DNA from: Escherichia phage vB_EcoM_Ozark
Reading direction: 5' to 3' (one strand)
DNA: 64,000 nt
Sequence record: NC_054927.1
Within the stretch, counting starts at the first letter, position 1. Each line of letters opens with the position of its first letter. Under the pieces are notes generated by a model that worked only from the letters and a program-made list of their open reading frames with translations, was not told the origin of the DNA and did not search any database. A program made the translations under genes and the position numbers. Positions 2-46,864 of the stretch are shown here, piece by piece.

Positions 2-283
2 GCGACTATTCAAGAATTTAGAACGTTTAGTGAAAAAGGCGTGTCTTGGGCGGCTGAAGAAGGTTATCATGACGATTTAGTAATGTCTTTAGTGATTTTT
101 GGATGGTTATCAACGCAGTCAAAATTTATTGATTATGCGGATAAAGATGACATGCGACTAGCATCTGAAGTGTTTTCAAAAGAACTTCAAGATATGAGCG
201 ACGACTACGCGCCAGTTATATTTGTGGATTCGGTTCATTCTGCTGAGTATGTTCCAGTATCTCATGGTATGTCAATGGTATAA
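2..283 (+). CDS. 17: terminase large subunit, C-terminal fragment (5' end outside window)
   Basis: Frame open from window edge to stop at 281-283; sits immediately upstream of tail sheath gene as in T4 order 17-18-19. Confidence 0.6.
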   Translation, partial: ATIQEFRTFSEKGVSWAAEEGYHDDLVMSLVIFGWLSTQSKFIDYADKDDMRLASEVFSKELQDMSDDYAPVIFVDSVHSAEYVPVSHGMSMV

Positions 284-286
284 ATA
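279..286 (+). promoter_or_regulatory. late promoter motif TATAAATA upstream of gene 18
   Basis: Exact TATAAATA 29 nt upstream of the gene 18 ATG. Confidence 0.6.
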
Positions 287-314
287 TATTAAAGCATATT
301 AAAGAGGATTAAAA

Positions 315-2294
315 ATGACTTTATTATCTCCGGGCATTGAGCTCAAAGAAACTACGGTTCAAAGCACCGTGGTTAATAACTCTACTGGTACAGCAGCTTT
401 GGCCGGTAAATTCCAGTGGGGTCCTGCTTTTCAGATTAAACAGGTTACAAATGAAGTAGATTTAGTTAATACTTTTGGTCAACCAACCGCTGAAACTGCT
501 GACTATTTTATGTCTGCGATGAATTTCTTGCAGTACGGAAATGACTTACGAGTTGTTCGTGCTGTCGATAGAGATACCGCTAAAAACTCATCTCCGATTG
601 CTGGTAATATTGAATACACAATTTCTACCCCAGGTAGTAACTATGCGGTTGGAGATAAAATCACGGTCAAATATGTTTCAGATGATATTGAAACTGAAGG
701 TAAAATCACCGAAGTAGATGCTGATGGAAAAATCAAGAAAATTAGTATTCCTACTGCAAAAATTATCGCTAAAGCGAAAGAAGTCGGTGAATATCCAACA
801 CTAGGTTCTAACTGGACTGCGGAAATTTCTTCGTCTTCCTCTGGTTTAGCTGCAGTAATAACTCTTGGAAAAATTATTACTGATTCTGGTATTTTATTAG
901 CTGAAATTGAAAATGCTGAAGCTGCTATAACAGCAGTTGACTTTCAAGCAAATCTCGAAAAATACGGAATTCCAGGAGTAGTAGCTCTTTATCCAGGCGA
1001 ATTAGGCGATAAAATTGAAATTGAAATCGTATCTAAAGCTGACTATGCAAAAGGAGCTTCTGCATTACTCCCAATTTATCCAGGTGGTGGTACTCGTGCA
1101 TCTACTGCCAAAGCAGTGTTTGGATATGGACCGCAAACTGATTCACAGTACGCTATTATAGTTCGTCGTAATGATGCTATTGTTCAAAGCGTTGTTCTTT
1201 CAACTAAGCGTGGTGAAAAAGATATTTACGATAGTAACATCTATATCGATGACTTTTTCGCAAAAGGTGGTTCAGAATATATTTTTGCAACTGCACAAAA
1301 CTGGCCAGAAGGCTTCTCTGGAATTTTAACTCTGTCTGGTGGATTATCATCAAATGCTGAAGTAACAGCAGGAGATTTGATGGAAGCTTGGGACTTCTTT
1401 GCTGACCGTGAATCTGTTGACGTTCAACTGTTTATTGCGGGTTCTTGTGCCGGTGAATCTTTAGAAACAGCATCTACTGTCCAAAAACATGTTGTTTCAA
1501 TCGGGGATGCTCGTCAAGATTGCTTAGTATTGTGCTCTCCTCCGCGTGAAACTGTAGTTGGAATTCCTGTAACTCGTGCTGTTGATAACTTAGTCAATTG
1601 GAGAACTGCGGCAGGTTCATACACTGATAATAACTTTAATATCAGTTCAACCTATGCAGCAATCGACGGCAACTACAAATATCAGTATGACAAATATAAT
1701 GATGTGAATCGTTGGGTTCCATTAGCAGCTGATATTGCTGGTTTATGCGCAAGAACTGATAACGTTTCTCAAACTTGGATGTCTCCAGCTGGTTATAATC
1801 GTGGCCAGATTCTTAACGTTATTAAACTTGCTATTGAAACTCGCCAAGCTCAGCGCGACCGTTTATACCAAGAAGCTATTAACCCGGTAACTGGTACAGG
1901 TGGCGATGGTTACGTATTGTATGGTGATAAAACAGCTACTTCTGTTCCTTCTCCGTTTGATCGTATTAACGTTCGTCGTCTGTTTAATATGTTGAAAACG
2001 AATATCGGACGTAGTTCAAAATATCGTTTGTTCGAATTAAACAACGCGTTTACTCGTTCATCATTCCGCACAGAAACTGCCCAGTACTTACAGGGAATTA
2101 AAGCTCTCGGTGGAATTTATGAATATCGTGTAGTTTGCGATACAACAAATAACACTCCGTCAGTAATTGATAGAAATGAGTTTGTTGCAACATTCTACAT
2201 CCAACCTGCGCGCAGTATAAATTATATTACTTTGAATTTCGTCGCAACTGCTACTGGTGCAGACTTCGATGAGTTAACTGGTCTTGCAGGTTAA
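315..2294 (+). CDS. 18: tail sheath protein
   Basis: 659-aa ORF starting MTLLSPGIELK, ATG preceded by AGAGGA; length and position match T4 gp18. Confidence 0.93.
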   Translation: MTLLSPGIELKETTVQSTVVNNSTGTAALAGKFQWGPAFQIKQVTNEVDLVNTFGQPTAETADYFMSAMNFLQYGNDLRVVRAVDRDTAKNSSPIAGNIEYTISTPGSNYAVGDKITVKYVSDDIETEGKITEVDADGKIKKISIPTAKIIAKAKEVGEYPTLGSNWTAEISSSSSGLAAVITLGKIITDSGILLAEIENAEAAITAVDFQANLEKYGIPGVVALYPGELGDKIEIEIVSKADYAKGASALLPIYPGGGTRASTAKAVFGYGPQTDSQYAIIVRRNDAIVQSVVLSTKRGEKDIYDSNIYIDDFFAKGGSEYIFATAQNWPEGFSGILTLSGGLSSNAEVTAGDLMEAWDFFADRESVDVQLFIAGSCAGESLETASTVQKHVVSIGDARQDCLVLCSPPRETVVGIPVTRAVDNLVNWRTAAGSYTDNNFNISSTYAAIDGNYKYQYDKYNDVNRWVPLAADIAGLCARTDNVSQTWMSPAGYNRGQILNVIKLAIETRQAQRDRLYQEAINPVTGTGGDGYVLYGDKTATSVPSPFDRINVRRLFNMLKTNIGRSSKYRLFELNNAFTRSSFRTETAQYLQGIKALGGIYEYRVVCDTTNNTPSVIDRNEFVATFYIQPARSINYITLNFVATATGADFDELTGLAG

Positions 2295-2310
2295 TACGGT
2301 GCATTCTAAA

Positions 2311-2328
2311 GGCCTGTTTCGGCAGGCC
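2311..2328 (+). terminator. stem-loop downstream of gene 18
   Basis: GGCCUG-UUUCGG-CAGGCC inverted repeat directly after the gene 18 stop. Confidence 0.4.
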
Positions 2329-2388
2329 ATATAAATACACTATATCCTTAATTCTTTAATTCTATATGCCCTAGGTTAAACATAGGGA

Positions 2389-2396
2389 TATAAATA
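2389..2396 (+). promoter_or_regulatory. late promoter motif upstream of gene 19
   Basis: Exact TATAAATA 15 nt upstream of the gene 19 ATG; a second copy lies at 2330-2337. Confidence 0.55.
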
Positions 2397-2410
2397 CTAC
2401 AGAGGCTAAT

Positions 2411-2902
2411 ATGTTTGTAGATGATGTAACACGAGCGTTTGAATCTGGTGATTTTGCTCGACCTAACTTATTCCAAGTAGAAATTTCTTATCTTGGACAA
2501 AATTTTACGTTCCAATGTAAAGCTACTGCTCTACCAGCTGGTATTGTAGAAAAAATTCCAGTCGGATTTATGAACCGTAAAATTAACGTAGCAGGCGATC
2601 GTACATTCGATGACTGGACTGTTACAGTAATGAACGATGAAGCTCATGATGCTCGCCAGAAGTTCGTTGATTGGCAAAGCATTGCTGCGGGGCAAGGAAA
2701 CGAAATTACTGGTGGAAAACCTGCAGAGTATAAAAAGAGCGCTATTGTTCGCCAATATGCTCGTGACGCTAAAACAGTAACAAAAGAAATTGAAATTAAA
2801 GGCTTGTGGCCTACTAACGTGGGTGAACTTCAATTAGATTGGGATTCAAACAATGAAATCCAAACCTTTGAAGTAACTCTTGCTCTCGATTATTGGGAAT
2901 AA
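2411..2902 (+). CDS. 19: tail tube protein
   Basis: 163-aa ORF starting MFVDDVTRAFESGDF; size and position as T4 gp19. Confidence 0.93.
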   Translation: MFVDDVTRAFESGDFARPNLFQVEISYLGQNFTFQCKATALPAGIVEKIPVGFMNRKINVAGDRTFDDWTVTVMNDEAHDARQKFVDWQSIAAGQGNEITGGKPAEYKKSAIVRQYARDAKTVTKEIEIKGLWPTNVGELQLDWDSNNEIQTFEVTLALDYWE

Positions 2903-2934
2903 AATGAATGGGGAGAAATCCCCATCCTGCTTAA

Positions 2935-4559
<1,625 letters not shown>

Positions 4560-4560
<1 letters not shown>

Positions 4561-4808
4561 TGGAAGGTTTAATTGAAGCTATTAAATCAAACGACCTCGT
4601 AGCCGCTCGTAAATTATTTGCTGAAGCCATGGCTGCAAGAACGATTGATTTAATTAAAGAAGAAAAAATCGCTATCGCTCGTAATTTCTTAATCGAAGGT
4701 GAAGAACCTGAAGACGAGGATGAAGATGATGACGAAGATAGCGATGATAAAGACGACAAAAAAGACAAAGACTCTGACGAAGATGACGAAGACGAGGATG
4801 ATGAATAA
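4560..4808 (+). CDS. 67: prohead core protein with highly acidic C-terminus
   Basis: 82-codon ORF overlapping the gene 20 stop (TAATG); Asp/Glu-rich tail; position as T4 gene 67. Confidence 0.75.
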
Positions 4809-5233
4809 TGCTTCTGATCCCTGAAACTCATGAATTAGTTCTCGAGAATGTCGAAGCACTTATTCCTGAAGCACAGGGTCGCTTTGACGAATTGTCTTCT
4901 GCTTTAAATAAAGACGATATAAATACAATTGTCGAGAATATGCTTGATGATGAAACTGATTTAGCGGTTGCATTAGCTTCTATTAATGAAAATATGCCGT
5001 TAAATGAATTTATCGTTAAACATGTTTCTGCCCGTGGTGAAATTACTCGCACTAAAGATCGCAAAACGCGTGAACGTAATGCATTTCAAACCACTGGGCT
5101 GTCTAAAGCAAAACGTAGACAAATTGCTCGTAAAGCTACCAAAACGAAGATTGCCAATCCAGCAGGTCAATCTCGTGCTCAGCGTAAGCGTAAAAAAGCT
5201 CTTAAACGCCGTAAAGCATTAGGATTAAGCTAA
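4808..5233 (+). CDS. 68: prohead core protein
   Basis: 141-aa ORF translationally coupled (TAATG) between genes 67 and 21. Confidence 0.75.
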
Positions 5234-40400: not shown

Positions 40401-40903
40401 TTAAAAATATTTTTTAAAACTCATCATAACTTTATCATCAACATCATTATCAATCTGTGCAACAAGGTAAGATGACAGTTCTACTTCTTGTGGCGCGGAT
40501 TGAACATTATCAGAATTAAGATATTCACGAATCCAAGGATATGGGTGTTTAACCGGAGCATCGGTAATTGGGCATGGAAGACCACACTGTTTCATACGAG
40601 ATACAGTTAAGTAATCAATAAAGCTCCACATGCTATTTGTATTTAATCCAGGAACATCGCCATCTTTAAATAAATGAACTGCCCAATCTTTTTCTTGGCG
40701 GTTAACTTCCATGAAAATATCAACTGCTTCTTGTTCACACTCTTGAGCAATTTTAACCCATTCATCGCCATCAGTGCCAAGTTGAAGTTGACGAATAATA
40801 TATTGGGTGCCCTTGAGGTGGAGCTGTTCATCACGAGCAATGAACTTCATAATCTTGGCATTACCTTCCATGATTTCCATGTTCTTATGGAAGTTAAAGG
40901 TAC
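40401..40903 (-). CDS. nrdB: ribonucleotide reductase small subunit, exon 2
   Basis: C-terminal NrdB sequence (MEGNAKI...); 3' splice site placed after G at 40904 so the junction reads FYVSFAC-TFNFHKNMEIMEG. Confidence 0.75.
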
Positions 40904-41994
40904 CGTTATGTTCGATTGAGCTCGCTAATTCTCAACCCGTTCTCTTATGAACTGCTACATATTACTATGCAGACCAGACTATATCACAATCCCAGAGGGA
41001 TTCTCCCCATTTCGAGTCGCTTGACCCTACGTCCGAAGACTAGTCGTTGAACCTTGCTTTGCAATTGTCGCCGTGCCATCGTTTATATGTTGATGGTGAT
41101 AAATCTTTCTTATCACAATATGGACAATTCAATTGAATTCTATTTGGATTTAATTTACATCTGTCATTATGTTTTAGATAAAATCCAGGACCTTTACCAA
41201 TGTGACCGCAGAAATCACATGTGATTTCTTTTTGTGCAGGATGGGTCCCGTTCTTAACCATTTCTAATGTTTTTGCTGATGTTCTTTTCTTATGGTCTTC
41301 TGACAAGAAATGATGTGAACCGTCATTTACCCGTTTTGATTGAGTTTCTGACTGCATTTTACCACCGCAAAATACATGAGTACCTTCTTTTATAGCTGCA
41401 ATATTGCGTTCTTTAACTTTTGCAATATGCTCAGCTTGTTGAAAATTATGTATACCTAATGCAACTCTATTTAAATTAGATTTACGTTGTATTTCACCAC
41501 CTAAAAGATGAAATGTACCATTTTCTATCTTAGATTTAATAGAGGCAATATTTTTAGCTCGTACTTCAGGGATATTAAAAACCTGGATTTCTCTAGATTT
41601 TGCGGCTTTAGAAGCTAATTCAGAAATTTCTTCAGGAGAATATTTCATTCTGAGCTTTATAGCATGACAAGCCTGGTAGTCTTTTTGAGCTAAATGTATA
41701 TCATAATGTTCCTGTATAGAAAGGCACATCAAATTATCTAAATCATTATTTTCACGGTTACCGTCTTTATGATGGATTTCGTATGTTCTTCCATCAGAAT
41801 CTTTAGGTATAGGTCCGTTAGCATCTATCCAAATTTTTCTATAGTTCAATTGTGCATCCTCTTAAAAGTATAATCATATTTATATTATACTAATTAAAGG
41901 TGCAAGCAAAACCTTGGCTGCTAGTTTTCCTATAAAGGACTTTCCAGCAATTAAAGGAGTTTTCGATAAACGTTACCGTTTAAAGGCGCATTTT
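40904..41994 (-). mobile_element. group I intron in nrdB (about 1091 nt) carrying an HNH homing endonuclease ORF
   Basis: nrdB reading frame interrupted between conserved FYVSFA and CTFNFH blocks; 5' exon ends in U and intron ends in G. Confidence 0.75.
41040..41849 (-). CDS. intron-encoded HNH homing endonuclease (I-TevIII-like, full length)
   Basis: 269-codon ORF with HNH signature (EIHHKDGNRENN...HYDIH) and C-terminal Cys clusters; initiator appears to be TTG with GAGGA SD 7 nt upstream. Confidence 0.75.
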   Translation of the reverse strand: MNYRKIWIDANGPIPKDSDGRTYEIHHKDGNRENNDLDNLMCLSIQEHYDIHLAQKDYQACHAIKLRMKYSPEEISELASKAAKSREIQVFNIPEVRAKNIASIKSKIENGTFHLLGGEIQRKSNLNRVALGIHNFQQAEHIAKVKERNIAAIKEGTHVFCGGKMQSETQSKRVNDGSHHFLSEDHKKRTSAKTLEMVKNGTHPAQKEITCDFCGHIGKGPGFYLKHNDRCKLNPNRIQLNCPYCDKKDLSPSTYKRWHGDNCKARFND

Positions 41995-42670
41995 ACGCAA
42001 AAGATACATAAAAACGAATAGCTTCCAATGCGTTGATTACATGGAGGCAAAGGTAAAGAGATTTCATTAAAGCACGTTTAGCTTCGGCTTCTTGTTTAAT
42101 AGCTCGGTTTAAACGAAAGACGGCATCAGGAGATTCTTTAGCTAGTTCTACAAATTCTTTAGCATTTTCCCATTCACGAGTCTTAACTAGAACATCATCG
42201 TAATAGCGACCAATGGACTCGGCACGTTTCATAATAGCTTTATCTAATACAATCTCATCAAATACCTTTGACGGATCAGTATAAAGATTTCGCATAATAT
42301 GAGTGTATGAACGACTGTGAATAGTTTCACTAAAAGTCCATGTAGCAACCCATGTATCAAGACTTGGGTCTGAAATTAACGACATAAGTACAGCAGACGG
42401 TGCACGACCCTGAATGCTATCTAGAAGTGATTGATACTTCAGGTTATTAGTAAAAATATCTTGCTGATATTGAGGAAGCTTGTTAAATTGTGCAGCATCC
42501 ATCATCAAGTTTACTTCTTCAGGACGCCAGAAAAATGATAATTGCTTTTCGGTTAAATCTTCAAAAACTTTATGACGTTGAATATCATAACGCGCAATAC
42601 CAAGACCTGAACCAAAAAACATAGGTTCTTTTAAAACATCAACTGGATTTGTATTAAAAACTGTGCTCAT
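41995..42670 (-). CDS. nrdB: ribonucleotide reductase small subunit, exon 1
   Basis: N-terminal 225 codons of NrdB ending ...EAIRFYVSFA plus the first nucleotide of the Cys codon. Confidence 0.8.
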
Positions 42671-42721: not shown

Positions 42722-44986
42722 TCATAATTTACAGGATGAACAATCTTCAGCTTTTGGAGTTTCTATTTCATAATCATCAGTACCGGAACCATCACGGGTA
42801 TTATGATAATAGAAATTTTTTCCGCCAAAATACCAGAAATACAAAAGGTCATCAATCATTATTGACATTGGAACTTTTCCTTTTGGAAAAATCTGTGGGT
42901 CATAATACGTATTCGCTGAAGCTGATTGACATACCCATTTCAGCATAATAGCTACCTGCGTAAGATAAGGTTTATTACCTTTCTTAGCTAATTTCCATGT
43001 ATAATCATATAGGTCTATGTTATGCTCAATATTGGGCACGACTTGATTAAAGGAACCCTCTTTTGATTCTTTAACAGAGACTGGTCCACGTGGAGGCTCG
43101 ATACCGTTTGTACTGTTAGAAACTTGGGAAGATGACTCACATGGCATAAGTGCTGATAATGTGCTATTACGGATGCCAAAGAGCTTAAGGTCTTCCCGCA
43201 GCGACGACCAGTCACAAACGTATTTTGGAGCTGCGATTTGGTCAATCTTTTTATTGTACCAGTCGATAGGTAATTCGCCTCGAGACCAACGAGTGTCTGA
43301 ATAATATTCGCAAGGTCCTTTTTCTTTGGCGAGCTTAATGGATGCTTTAATGAGTCCATACTGTAATCTCTCAAATAGTTCATGTGTTAAATCGTTAGCA
43401 TCTTCATAAGAAGCAAAGTTACTTGCCAGCCAAGCTGCATAGTTGGTAACACCTACACCGAGGTTACGACGCTTTTTAGCTTTTTCTGCTTCAGGAACTG
43501 GATATCCTTGATAATCCAAAAGATTATCAAGAGCACGAACTTGAACTTCTGCCAATTCATTAATTTTATCTTGGTCTTGCCAGTCAAAATTATCTAGTAC
43601 GAATGCAGAGAGAGTACACAATCCAATTTCAGCATCAGGACTGTTCACATCATTTGTTGGAATAGCAATTTCACAGCACAAGTTACTCTGACGAATAGGT
43701 GCCTTTTCACGAATAAACGGAGTATAGTTATTCGTATTATCAATGAACTGCACATAAATCCTTGCTGTTCCTGAACGTTCAGTCATGAGCAATTCAAATA
43801 GTTCACGGGCTTTAATACGCTTTTTACGAATATTAGGGTCTTTTTCTGCTGCTTCGTATAATTCACGGAAACGGTCTTGGTCTTTAAAATAAGAATAATA
43901 AAGCTCGCCACCCATTTCATGTGGACTGAACAAAGTAATGTAATCGTTCTTTCCGAATCGTTCCATCATCAAATCATTCAGTTGAACACCATAATCCATA
44001 TGACGAATGCGGTTTTCTTCTACGCCTTTGTTATTTTTCAAAACGAGAAGATTTTCAACTTCCAAATGCCAAATAGGATAATAAGCAGTAGCAGCGCCGC
44101 CACGAATTCCACCCTGTGAGCATGATTTAACAGCAGTTTGAAAATGTTTCCAAAAAGGAATAACACCGGTATGGCGTACTTCACCCATGCCAATCTTAGA
44201 ACCTTCGGCACGAATCATACCAACGTTAATACCAATTCCAGCGCGTTTAGAGATATATTCAACAATTGAAGCAGAAGCCTTATTGATAGACTTCAGCGAA
44301 TCACCTGCCTCAATAACAACACATGAACTAAACTGTCGAGTCGGAGTACGGCAACCAGCCATAATAGGAGTTGGCAATGAAATCTGTCGAGTAGATACTG
44401 CTTCATAAAAACGGATAACATGTTTTAGTCTATCAACAGGTTCATCTTGATGCAATGCCATTCCAATAGCCATAAATGCAAACTGCGGAGTTTCATAAAT
44501 TTGACCAGTGGTTTTATCTTTAACTAGATATTTTTCTTTTAATTGCATCGCCCCGGAATAAGTAAATTCCATATCCCGCTCGTGCTTAATTTTTGATTCT
44601 AAAAATGTAATTTCTTCCGCAGAATATTTTGACAATAATTCAGGGTCATATTTCCCTTCATTTACGCAATAAGAAATATGGTCAATAAATGAACGCGGTT
44701 CATACTGCCCGTAAACATGCTTACGAAGAGCAAACATTAAACAGCGTGCAGCTACATATTGATAATCAGGCTCTTCAACCGAAATAGAATTCGCAGCAGC
44801 CTTAATTACAATAGTTTGAATGTCATCAGTGGTCATTCCATCACGGAGATATGATTTAATATTTTCATATAATTCATAAGGATCTACAGATGTTCCTTCA
44901 GCTGCCCAAGATAAAACTTTAATAATTTTTTGTGGGTCAAAGCTCTGAGAAACACCACTACTTTTGATAACATTAATTAATTGCAT
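42722..44986 (-). CDS. nrdA: ribonucleotide reductase large subunit
   Basis: 754 aa from the ATG at 44986 (MQLINVIKSSG) with GAGGA SD; the track ORF is extended upstream from a TTG. Confidence 0.93.
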   Translation of the reverse strand: MQLINVIKSSGVSQSFDPQKIIKVLSWAAEGTSVDPYELYENIKSYLRDGMTTDDIQTIVIKAAANSISVEEPDYQYVAARCLMFALRKHVYGQYEPRSFIDHISYCVNEGKYDPELLSKYSAEEITFLESKIKHERDMEFTYSGAMQLKEKYLVKDKTTGQIYETPQFAFMAIGMALHQDEPVDRLKHVIRFYEAVSTRQISLPTPIMAGCRTPTRQFSSCVVIEAGDSLKSINKASASIVEYISKRAGIGINVGMIRAEGSKIGMGEVRHTGVIPFWKHFQTAVKSCSQGGIRGGAATAYYPIWHLEVENLLVLKNNKGVEENRIRHMDYGVQLNDLMMERFGKNDYITLFSPHEMGGELYYSYFKDQDRFRELYEAAEKDPNIRKKRIKARELFELLMTERSGTARIYVQFIDNTNNYTPFIREKAPIRQSNLCCEIAIPTNDVNSPDAEIGLCTLSAFVLDNFDWQDQDKINELAEVQVRALDNLLDYQGYPVPEAEKAKKRRNLGVGVTNYAAWLASNFASYEDANDLTHELFERLQYGLIKASIKLAKEKGPCEYYSDTRWSRGELPIDWYNKKIDQIAAPKYVCDWSSLREDLKLFGIRNSTLSALMPCESSSQVSNSTNGIEPPRGPVSVKESKEGSFNQVVPNIEHNIDLYDYTWKLAKKGNKPYLTQVAIMLKWVCQSASANTYYDPQIFPKGKVPMSIMIDDLLYFWYFGGKNFYYHNTRDGSGTDDYEIETPKAEDCSSCKL

Positions 44987-45011
44987 AAGTCCTCTGTAGT
45001 AAGTTACCCCA

Positions 45012-45019
45012 TATAAATA
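45012..45019 (+). promoter_or_regulatory. late promoter motif upstream of the free-standing GIY-YIG gene
   Basis: TATAAATA 22 nt upstream of the ATG at 45042, followed by AGGAG SD. Confidence 0.5.
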
Positions 45020-45041
45020 TAATTTTATATAGGAGAATATA

Positions 45042-45773
45042 ATGAAATCTGGAATATATGCTATTATAAACACTAAAACCAATAAGCACTATATAGGAAG
45101 TGCAATTAATTTTGAAGAACGATGGAAACGACACTTTAAAGATTTAGATAATGGAAATCATCATTCAATAAAGCTGCAGCGTTCTTATAATAAGCATGGG
45201 AAAGATGCTTTCGTATGTAAAATCATAGAAGAACTTCCATACGAAAAATCTATCATTATTGAACGTGAAAATTATTGGATACATGAATATGACTCAAAGG
45301 AAAATGGGTATAATATAGCAGACGCATCGTTTGGGGATACCTTATCTCATCACCCAAGAAAGCAAGAAATCCTTAATAAAATTTCAAATGCAATTAAAAA
45401 TAATAATTCAAAATTATCACCAGAAGAACTTAAGCAAAAACATGGTAGACCTAAAGACATCAAAGGTAAAACTATAGAAGAACACTATGGGTTAGATCGT
45501 GCTATAGAAATAAGCAAAAAGTTCCAAGAAAGAAACGCTGCACTTAATATGAAAGGCATCAATAATCCATATTATGGACAGACACATACCAATGAAGTTA
45601 GAAAACGAATTTCTGACTCACAAAGAGGTAAAAAGAAACCCCATCTAAGAGTAAGTATAGATGGGGTAGAATATCCAACAATAGCAGAAGCTGTGCGTCA
45701 AACCGGAATAAGCAGAAAACTTATATCTAAAAGATGTGCTCTAGATTGTTGGGAATCATATTTATACTGCTAA
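45042..45773 (+). CDS. free-standing GIY-YIG homing endonuclease, I-TevI-like
   Basis: 243-aa ORF starting [21 protein letters not shown] with ERWKRHF and [13 protein letters not shown] blocks closely resembling I-TevI; opposite strand to nrdA and td. Confidence 0.8.
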
Positions 45774-46007
45774 AGTTCTACATTCGTCATATTGTTTTTC
45801 CGTTAAAACAGTAATATCGTAGTAACAGTCAGAAGAAGTTTTAACTGTGGAAATTTTATTATCAAAATACTCACGAGTCATTTTATGAGTATAGTATTTT
45901 TTACCATAAATGGTAATAGGCTGTTCTGGTCCTGGAACTTCTAACTCGCTTGGGTTAGGAAGTGTAAAAAGAACAACGCCAGAAGTATCTTTAAATCGTA
46001 AAATCAT
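45762..46007 (-). CDS. hypothetical protein translationally coupled downstream of td
   Basis: 81-aa ORF whose ATG overlaps the td stop (ATGA). Confidence 0.5.
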
Positions 46008-46864
46008 ATTGCCATTTTCCCTTTAATTGCTGGATGCGATTCATAATTTTCAAGGATAAAATCTTTCGGTTTCATGTATTCAGTTAACCAGTAAAGCTGT
46101 GTTTCGGTGTCACAATTTCCAAACTCTATAGGCCAATCAATTTTAAGTTCACATAGTTCTTTAGGCTCACGACGTAAAATTTCTTTACATTGCTCAGTAT
46201 GATTCATATAGATGTGAGTATTACCACCAGAAAATATCAAATCTCCTGGGATAAGATTACACATCTTAGCCACAATATGCGTCAAGGCAGCGTACGAGGC
46301 AATGTTGAATGGCAATCCCAAGAAAACATCTACACTTCTTTGGTACCATTGTAAATCAAGATAACCATTACGCACATTAAACTGATAGAACATATGACAG
46401 GGCGGTAATGCCATTTGATTGATTTCAGCTGGATTCCATGCTGAAACGATTTGACGTCGATCAGTTGGTAATTTTTTAATACGATCAATAGTTTCAACTA
46501 ATTGATCCACACCACCGAAATCACGCCATTGTTTACCGTATATAGGACCAAGTTCACCACTATGATATCCTAGGTCTTTAGCCTGGTTTTCATAGTTATC
46601 GTCCCAAATAGTTTTACCTTGAATAAGACTACCATGAGTGCGAAGACGTAAATCATTAACATTGGTAGAACCGGAAATAAACCATAGAAGCTCAGCAATG
46701 CATGCATTCCAGGCGAGCTTCTTAGTTGTTACTGCAGGAAAACCTTTAGTTAAATCCCAGCGTAATTTAGTACCGAACAAAGCAATTGTTCCTGTGCCTG
46801 TTCGGTCATCGGTTTCATAGCCATTTTCAAAAATGTCTTTAATTAAATCTTGGTATTGTTTCAT
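46004..46864 (-). CDS. td: thymidylate synthase, uninterrupted (no intron)
   Basis: Continuous 286-aa ORF containing the conserved TS active-site region ([12 protein letters not shown]). Confidence 0.93.

Follow-up and report, generated by a model that had tools for sequence, protein, structure and literature searches.

The window analysed here is a 64,000-nucleotide (nt) stretch of the genome of Escherichia phage vB_EcoM_Ozark (NC_054927.1), a T4-like phage of the genus Tequatrovirus, and the subject of the analysis is an open reading frame (ORF) between the gene nrdA and the thymidylate synthase gene td. The ORF (45042-45773, plus strand, stop codon included) encodes a protein of 243 amino acids (aa) and is a free-standing homing endonuclease gene (HEG) of the I-TevI family with a GIY-YIG catalytic domain. 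It is preceded by the T4 late-promoter consensus motif TATAAATA at 45012-45019 and by the Shine-Dalgarno (SD) sequence AGGAG at 45031-45035, both on the plus strand and read from the sequence, with a spacing of 6 nt between the SD and the ATG. Both signals are present as described in an initial annotation of this DNA, which was made from the letters alone. The motif TATAAATA is also located 20-30 nt 5′ of the ATG in 7/7 free-standing homologues checked. The 5′ leader with the promoter, the ribosome-binding site (RBS), the ORF and 8 nt past the stop codon form a putative mobile cassette of 787 bp (44995-45781, plus strand).

The left flank of the cassette is nrdA (42722-44986, minus strand), a candidate alternative target of the enzyme; its start and the left end of the cassette are 8 nt apart. 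The true start of nrdA is the ATG at 44986, and the upstream TTG given in a program-made ORF list is not the true start. On the right, the cassette meets nrdA.2 (45762-46007, minus strand), which encodes a DUF5496 protein of 81 aa (Pfam, E = 8e-54) and overlaps the HEG ORF by 12 nt, followed by td (46004-46864, minus strand), the probable target. The genes nrdB, nrdA, nrdA.2, td and frd are all on the minus strand, and the HEG is antisense to every neighbor, as the initial annotation had stated. Its statement that the gene lies outside any intron was also confirmed, because td is a continuous ORF of 286 codons, nrdA is likewise continuous, and no group I intron was detected by Rfam in either gene. 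The position in the window equivalent to the insertion site of the T4 td intron is between 46316 and 46315, approximately 540 nt from the cassette.

The N-terminal part of the protein (residues 1-98, 45042-45335, plus strand) is the GIY-YIG catalytic domain, with the conserved residues Y6, Y17, R27, H31, H40, E76 and N91. The Pfam GIY-YIG model matched with an E-value of 1e-15, and the NCBIfam model TIGR01453, named 'group I intron endonuclease', matched with 130 bits, where the cut-off is 56. The sequence search of the PDB found the catalytic domain of I-TevI (1MK0/1LN0) with an E-value of 4e-40 and 69% identity, and the alignment with T4 I-TevI extends over the full length with 46% identity. 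In the AlphaFold2 model, which was built on 50 homologues and has a mean pLDDT of 89, the N-terminal domain agrees with 1MK0 at an rmsd of 0.6 Å and a target-normalised TM-score of 0.98 (Foldseek). Among the 50 homologues, Y17, R27, H31, H40, E76 and N91 are invariant and Y6 is nearly so. The residues R27 and E76 correspond to R27 and E75 of I-TevI, which were mutated in two crystal forms of its catalytic domain. The Pfam and TIGR01453 matches, the similarity to 1MK0/1LN0 and the full-length alignment bear out the earlier description of the ORF as an I-TevI-like GIY-YIG gene, and the GIY-YIG profile search and the alignment to I-TevI that had been proposed with it both showed this similarity.

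The C-terminal part (residues 99-243, 45336-45770, plus strand) consists of a linker and a DNA-binding domain, as delimited by Pfam, the match to the structure 1I3J and the secondary structure of the model. Two stretches match Pfam NUMOD3 with an E-value of 2e-6, and the match to Pfam I-TevI_DNA-bd is 21 bits, under the 27-bit cut-off. The DNA-binding domain of I-TevI (1I3J) was found over residues 156-239 in the PDB sequence search (E = 3e-7) and also by a Foldseek search with the model (E = 7e-4). According to these three sources, the DNA-binding part comprises a NUMOD3 minor-groove helix at residues ~171-194, a helix-turn-helix (HTH) at residues ~201-238, and helices at the zinc-finger site. 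In the alignment, the four Cys of the I-TevI segment CKCGVRIQTSAYTCSKC are opposite a Cys-free segment of the window protein, and the model predicts a helix where I-TevI has its zinc finger. The C-terminal half has the I-TevI architecture of linker, NUMOD3 helix and HTH, minus the zinc finger. The initial annotation had noted repeated basic segments and an HTH-like stretch in this half and had called it a different DNA-binding region from that of I-TevI. The repeated basic stretches are indeed NUMOD3 repeats and the HTH is present, but the region is not different, since it aligns with I-TevI throughout and only the zinc finger is missing.

The protein has the features of the TIGR01453 subfamily, that is, a GIY-YIG domain with the catalytic Tyr/Arg/His/Glu/Asn set, connected via a linker to a NUMOD3 and HTH module. 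It is not I-TevI proper, as it has no Cys4 zinc finger (PF22635) and its gene is not inside a td group I intron. The dN/dS ratio between the window gene and its counterpart in Klebsiella phage KP179 is 0.12 overall and 0.09 in the DNA-binding half, and none of the eight E. coli-phage copies has a stop codon within the HEG. Judging from these values, the ORF is intact and under purifying selection, which is strong on the DNA-binding half.

The boundaries of the cassette were determined by comparison with NR1, a phage without the HEG. The identity between NR1 and the window is 98% up to 44994 and 97.5% again from 45782, which places the junctions at 44994/44995 and 45781/45782. The left junction at 44994 is 8 nt upstream of the nrdA ATG at 44986. 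Between the junctions, NR1 has 300 bp, consisting of nrdA.1 and the 3′ end of nrdA.2, and the window has 787 bp; the cassette stands in place of nrdA.1 and the final ~38 nt of nrdA.2 of the HEG-less relatives. Because of this replacement, nrdA.2 is shortened (81 aa in the window and 87 aa in NR1, diverging at 45781/45782), and its last codons, about 7 depending on the choice of the junction, are the antisense of the 3′ end of the cassette. The left junction in the phages KpV477 and Roth16 is the same as in the window, where CAT AAGTCCTC is followed directly across the junction by T(G/A)TAGTAAG. The window td is of the NR1 type (97.5% identity) and not of the T4 or sutha type, so the right flank changes haplotype directly at the cassette boundary. 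No intron remnants were found by Rfam around the cassette, in which the ORF is flanked by only ~50 nt upstream and 8 nt downstream. The stand-alone ORF, its own expression signals, its presence or absence among close relatives and the sharp junctions are the characteristics of a free-standing HEG.

Two smaller features were seen at the right boundary. The 8 nt at 45774-45781, AGTTCTAC, fill the space from the stop codon to the resumption of homology with the HEG-less phages. They are found neither in the Klebsiella copies nor in the HEG-less phages examined (NR1 and T4), and the 7-mer GTTCTAC occurs 10 times in the 64 kb on both strands; the 8 nt may be filler from template switching or may be due to chance. 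At 46007-46010, the window is without the 27-nt spacer between nrdA.2 and td that is seen in the other seven carriers.

The same gene at the same site was found with 98.8-99.7% identity in only 7 other phage records (LH2, sutha, TB004, RPN226, ECO07P5, CJY920 and N2), and the number of Tequatrovirus records with the gene is 8 of ~680. About 18 Klebsiella phages carry it at 90-92% identity, and those checked belong to Jiaodavirus. In Klebsiella phage KP179, the identity is 92.8% over 44992-45774, compared with 72% in both nrdA and td. Pairs of Klebsiella copies show differences of 4-17%, whereas no E. coli copy departs from the window by more than 1.2% (9 nt). The greater diversity among the Klebsiella copies suggests that the gene has resided longer in Jiaodavirus and entered Tequatrovirus recently, apparently from phages of the Jiaodavirus type. 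The segment at the replaced position also varies; it is nrdA.1 in Tequatrovirus, is missing in KpV477 and Roth16, and is an unrelated 76-aa ORF in KP179. The 256-bp gap between nrdA and the HEG in KP179 was also considered as a fragment of td or nrdA; this was rejected, as the gap holds an unrelated small ORF.

Among the eight carriers, the mean pairwise difference is 0.010 in the cassette, compared with 0.031-0.040 in nrdA, 0.042 in nrdA.2 and 0.14 in td exon 2. The neighboring td is of three types: intronless in the window and ECO07P5, interrupted by a 254-nt ORF-less intron in N2 and CJY920, and interrupted by the I-TevI intron in LH2, sutha, TB004 and RPN226. The diversity of the cassette is below that of its flanks and its similarity is discordant with them, which is what horizontal spread produces. 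The patchy distribution, the sharp junctions, the low diversity across backgrounds and the discordance with the flanks together appear to be the signature of an active selfish element.

The cassette itself is mosaic. Over its first 349 nt, which hold the leader and the catalytic domain, the identity to KP179 is 98.6%; near codon 100 it falls to 88% for the other 434 nt. Trees of the separate domains give different partners for the window, namely KP179 and KpV477 with the catalytic part and Roth16 with the DNA-binding part. The break in identity and the discordance of the trees suggest recombination at the domain boundary, in agreement with the modular way in which GIY-YIG enzymes are proposed to have evolved (PMC12774661).

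The slot between nrdA and td, with the HEG antisense to both, is occupied in the same way in Jiaodavirus, Tegunavirus, Kagamiyamavirus, Winklervirus (in decayed form), Hadassahvirus, Lazarusvirus and three metagenomic relatives; the last have 75%, 78% and 54% identity and the same synteny. Proteins with 47-57% identity are encoded in the same slot and antisense in Yersinia phage phiR1-RT, E. coli phage EcS1, and the Acinetobacter phages AbTZA1 and Kimel. In Erwinia phage Gravdalen (2501-3228), the slot homologue is divided into two ORFs of 468 and 225 nt with ~67% nucleotide identity, and this copy appears to be decaying. One protein, P0003, was found in identical form both with an intronless td and with a td intron bearing a zinc-finger endonuclease. 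A partial protein with 86% identity to the window protein (P0005) was observed on a 760-nt contig labelled Xanthomonas campestris at NCBI, which is probably a phage sequence within a bacterial assembly.

The relation to intron-borne I-TevI was examined with neighbor-joining trees of small samples, one of them with 50 sequences. The intron-borne proteins of T4, sutha, Salmonella phage STP4-a and Pseudomonas phage PspYZU05 form one clade with 100% bootstrap, and the proteins of the window, Jiaodavirus, EcS1 and phiR1-RT form another with 99% bootstrap, the Acinetobacter proteins being unplaced. In the tree of 50 sequences, the proteins with the PF22635 zinc finger are monophyletic and nested among proteins without it, and the zinc finger thus seems to be derived, a trait of a single intronic clade. 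As the two groups are separate clades with high bootstrap values, the window gene would be neither a recent escapee from the intron nor a direct ancestor of I-TevI. The best reading of the trees is that the window lineage did not derive from intron-borne I-TevI but is old and stands as a sister or grade to it. The initial annotation had suggested a precursor of I-TevI as one possibility; a direct precursor does not agree with a gene that belongs to a separate, old free-standing lineage with the same locus in at least six genera.

The intron-borne and free-standing genes can also be compared in their outer limits. The td genes of N2 and CJY920 contain a 254-nt ORF-less group I intron (4805-5058, minus strand; Rfam RF00028, 73-76 bits), which consists of nt 1-84 of the T4 intron, a 12-nt hairpin GTTCTTTTGAAC and nt 860-1017 of the T4 intron. 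This structure indicates that the I-TevI insert of the T4 intron starts at TGTAGGACTTGCCC, and the free-standing cassette starts at TGTAGTAAGTTACCCC. Both the cassette and the insert have TGTAG at their start and extend to the stop codon. The alignment of the cassette and I-TevI leaders (47/48 nt) was beaten by only 3 of 2000 shuffles, and the order of TGTAG, a C-rich box, the late-promoter motif and the SD is common to them. The STP4-a gene and the window gene share the ending ...TGC TAA. From these similarities, the same promoter-to-stop module is seen in two settings, namely the intron and the intergenic slot, as would be predicted by the endonuclease-invasion and collaborative-homing models (summarised in PMC3984707). 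Besides the 254-nt form, other td introns of Tequatrovirus have ~262, 320 and 445 nt, and this size series suggests decay of I-TevI. An exclusive tie between the ORF-less td introns and the free-standing gene was considered and rejected, because such introns are found in many phages without the HEG, including HMD-9 and 236Ecol005PP, both of which were checked.

Taking these results together, we consider it likely that the window gene is a free-standing HEG of the I-TevI family, contained in a late-promoter/RBS/ORF cassette between nrdA and nrdA.2/td, which spreads by intronless homing with td as its probable target. In this mechanism, late transcription would be driven by the gene's own TATAAATA and run antisense to the nrdA/td transcripts of the early and middle phases. 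During mixed infection, the enzyme would bind a long site in a phage without the HEG, and the tethered GIY-YIG domain would make a staggered double-strand break at a distance. Recombinational repair off the HEG-carrying genome would then copy the cassette in, which is intronless homing. The initial annotation had raised intronless and collaborative homing as alternatives; intronless homing fits the data best, but collaborative homing is inapplicable because the window td is intronless.

As for the target, we favor, with less assurance than for the mechanism, a conserved td sequence around the I-TevI/I-BmoI site, ~0.3-0.55 kb away from the cassette. I-TevI and I-BmoI have been described as cutters of related sites in thymidylate synthase genes (PMC12774661). 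All sampled lineages closer than the outgroup P479 are td-linked, among them the intronic ones with a zinc finger, and for this reason td is the probable target. In one of them (P0042, L025), the gene is free-standing directly downstream of a complete td, and nrdA is not nearby. In another (P0040, L026, Logan ERR6168671 contig 1-1407), a zinc-finger-less gene is inside a td intron, the 5′ part of which resembles T4 intron nt ~40-84 and ends ...AATCCCGTGCTAAAT as in T4. On this contig, which is cut, the td homology after the intron-like 3′ core seems to begin 7 codons upstream of the T4 insertion site, and the position of the intron may be shifted.

The locus of the protein P0019 (L027/L028, JGI 3300045325 contig) has a complete td at 2055-2912, the HEG at 3001-3813 and a td fragment at 3813-4124 (L027), and this order was found in six independent assemblies. 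The fragment corresponds to Td residues 177-286 with 77% nucleotide identity to the 3′ part of the resident gene, and its homology sets in ~15-20 nt upstream of the position where the T4 intron is inserted, close to the I-TevI cut. I-TevI cleaves 23 and 25 nt upstream of this insertion site. The td fragment can be read as the scar of an imprecise repair, which would have followed a break at the I-TevI position made by a non-intronic member of the family. A further proposal joins two statements, that the free-standing lineage cuts the I-TevI site of td and that the module moved between the nrdA-td slot and the P6 loop of the td intron. We regard this combination as possible rather than probable.

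Several observations weigh against td as the target and against homing as the way in which the cassette arrived. The putative P0019 scar belongs to another subclade, and the protein there has only 46% identity to that of the window. No target-site immunity was seen in td, as the window td does not differ from that of the HEG-less NR1 around the I-TevI site, and the eight carriers have several different td alleles there. Carriers with an intronless td would be targets of their own enzyme unless the enzyme tolerates this or acts elsewhere. In the comparison of flank haplotypes between carriers and HEG-less phages, no co-conversion tract pointing to the cut site was found; the haplotype of nrdA.2 and td exon 2 seen in six of the eight carriers is frequent in HEG-less phages too. 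The transfer between genera also occurred without a co-converted flank, and this step looks like an illegitimate or microhomology-mediated insertion and not classical homing. Furthermore, within the clade of the window, nrdA adjoins the gene as consistently as td. A scan for operator-like similarity between the 5′ leader and td gave no usable result, the known homing site having been missed in its T4 positive control.

The consistent presence of nrdA leads to the alternative that the free-standing endonuclease targets the 5′ end of nrdA, or the replaced nrdA.1/nrdA.2 segment, and not td. The left end of the cassette abuts the conserved RBS and start of nrdA (GCATAAGTCCTC) in both Tequatrovirus and Jiaodavirus, nrdA adjoins in every member of the clade, and a site within the replaced segment would explain self-immunity, for which td has no such signature. 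However, the more distant relatives L025 and L027 are linked to td without nrdA, the replaced segment is not conserved across genera, and the DNA-binding domain is homologous to that of I-TevI. Such a target is judged unlikely, and the probability left beyond td and the nrdA side belongs to another target or to no activity. We give much less weight to a domesticated, non-mobile GIY-YIG protein kept for the benefit of the phage, for example as a late-gene repressor or as an exclusion nuclease against co-infecting phages. I-TevI autorepresses at its own promoter region, and the 5′ leader of the window gene is organised as that region is; the strong purifying selection (dN/dS of 0.09 in the DNA-binding half) and the long persistence at one locus across genera would also suit a protein of this type. 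Against this stand the patchy occurrence in 8 of ~680 Tequatrovirus records, the near-identical cassette in unrelated backgrounds, the decayed copy in Gravdalen, the transfer between genera and the fully kept catalytic residues. The first four of these are hallmarks of a selfish mobile gene and argue against a fixed host function, which makes domestication very improbable.

The remaining alternative is that the gene is a recent escapee or remnant of the I-TevI of the td intron, which left the intron upon intron loss; a remnant was also among the suggestions of the initial annotation. The TGTAG start and the leader organisation shared with the I-TevI insert would agree with it, as would the intronless state of the adjoining td and the GTTCTAC(A) after the window stop codon, which is also the end of the T4 I-TevI insert. 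The protein, however, is merely 46% identical to I-TevI, lacks the zinc finger and is positioned outside the intronic clade with its 100% support, while all of its nearest relatives from other genera occur as free-standing genes at this locus and a window-type gene coexists with the full I-TevI intron in four phages. The ORF, moreover, is intact with a dN/dS of 0.12, and no intron sequence flanks it. The chance of a recent escape is accordingly negligible, and the suggestion of a remnant was not upheld.

The free-standing I-TevI-family gene proposed here can be placed among known systems. It shares with I-TevI of T4 (1MK0, 1LN0 and 1I3J) the catalytic fold, a homologous linker, NUMOD3 helix and HTH, the order of the leader elements and the linkage to td. 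Unlike I-TevI, it is non-intronic, antisense to td and in a separate clade, its protein is without the zinc finger, which is the distance determinant of I-TevI, and it has the canonical TATAAATA where the I-TevI gene has AATAAATA. I-BmoI, which is encoded in the thyA intron of Bacillus mojavensis, is also a GIY-YIG enzyme that targets a thymidylate synthase gene, but it is bacterial and intron-encoded. Its DNA-binding domain is described as NUMOD3 repeats (PMC3664794), and compared by this description it resembles the two NUMOD3 matches and the HTH of the window protein. The Seg genes of T4, including SegH, which spread by intronless homing, are similar as patchily distributed stand-alone GIY-YIG genes between conserved genes in place of a small non-essential ORF, and the expected mechanism is also alike, with a break in a neighboring conserved gene followed by gene conversion. 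In contrast to Seg, the window protein is much nearer to I-TevI, with its TIGR01453 match and I-TevI_DNA-bd domain, and its gene adjoins the gene that hosts its intron-borne relative, which Seg genes do not.

Collaborative homing has been described for T3 gene 5.3 and the PhiI endonuclease I-TslI, and for F-CphI and the psbA intron of cyanophages (Bonocora & Shub 2009; Zeng et al. 2009; both as summarised in PMC3984707). A free-standing endonuclease gene lies there beside an intronless target that has a group I intron in relatives, as at the present locus, and in the T3/PhiI case the intron of the relative carries a homologous endonuclease, as I-TevI is here. The described systems use enzymes of the HNH or Endo VII type with mapped cleavage sites, whereas the shared site in the present system is deduced from comparison. 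An ORF-less intron in the same genome, on which collaborative homing depends, is not present in the window; N2 and CJY920 do combine the same free-standing gene with an ORF-less intron at the td site. In a further difference from the described systems, ORF-less td introns are also present in many phages that lack the HEG.

[quoted passage not shown] The window gene is of a kind already known, namely a free-standing GIY-YIG homing endonuclease, and its further value lies in being the natural free-standing counterpart of the best-studied intron endonuclease. In GenBank, the gene is labelled 'homing endonuclease', 'GIY-YIG nuclease' or 'I-TevI' in its carriers. Among the papers reached by full-text search, none was found that characterises the lineage or its relation to the td intron, and the only mentions were passing 'I-TevI-like' annotations of genes in the Acinetobacter phages 133 and Ac42 (PMC4177764). 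If the td site is shared and the module moved, the single genus Tequatrovirus would hold all stages of the proposed path toward a mobile intron, from an intronless td with a free-standing gene, through an ORF-less intron with a free-standing gene, to an intron with its own endonuclease, and the origin of the textbook td mobile intron would be directly testable. A free-standing sister lineage together with three td allele types would form a natural test of the model in which a pre-adapted free-standing endonuclease invades an intron, and this within the experimental system that is best developed. The lineage would also offer related linker and DNA-binding modules, from which it may be learned how GIY-YIG enzymes set the distance of cleavage and change their targets. 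Should the gene be no more than another Seg-type element in its behavior, it would be an ordinary, already annotated selfish gene.

Other insertions were observed in the ribonucleotide reductase genes. In RPN226, nrdA (277-3445) is divided into two ORFs by a gene for a 236-aa HNH endonuclease (1256-1966), an arrangement that recalls the insertion of mobE in nrdA of Aeromonas phage Aeh1. In the window, nrdB (minus strand) is interrupted; its 5′ part occupies 41993-42670 (225 aa), its 3′ part 40401-40880, and ~1.1 kb separates the two. This gap contains an HNH ORF of 269 aa (41040-41849), matched by Pfam HNH_3 with an E-value of 6e-13, and a region that matches the group I intron model RF00028 below threshold (33.9 bits, E = 2e-6). 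The gap resembles the T-even nrdB intron carrying an I-TevIII-type gene of full length. The interval between nrdA and nrdB in the window has no mobE. Within the HEG itself, a hairpin GCACT-N8-AGTGC with a T-rich tail is present at 45086-45113 (codons 15-24). It is terminator-like on both strands with a weak stem of 5 bp, and internal terminators near the 5′ end have been reported for mobE and segF (PMC2988022).

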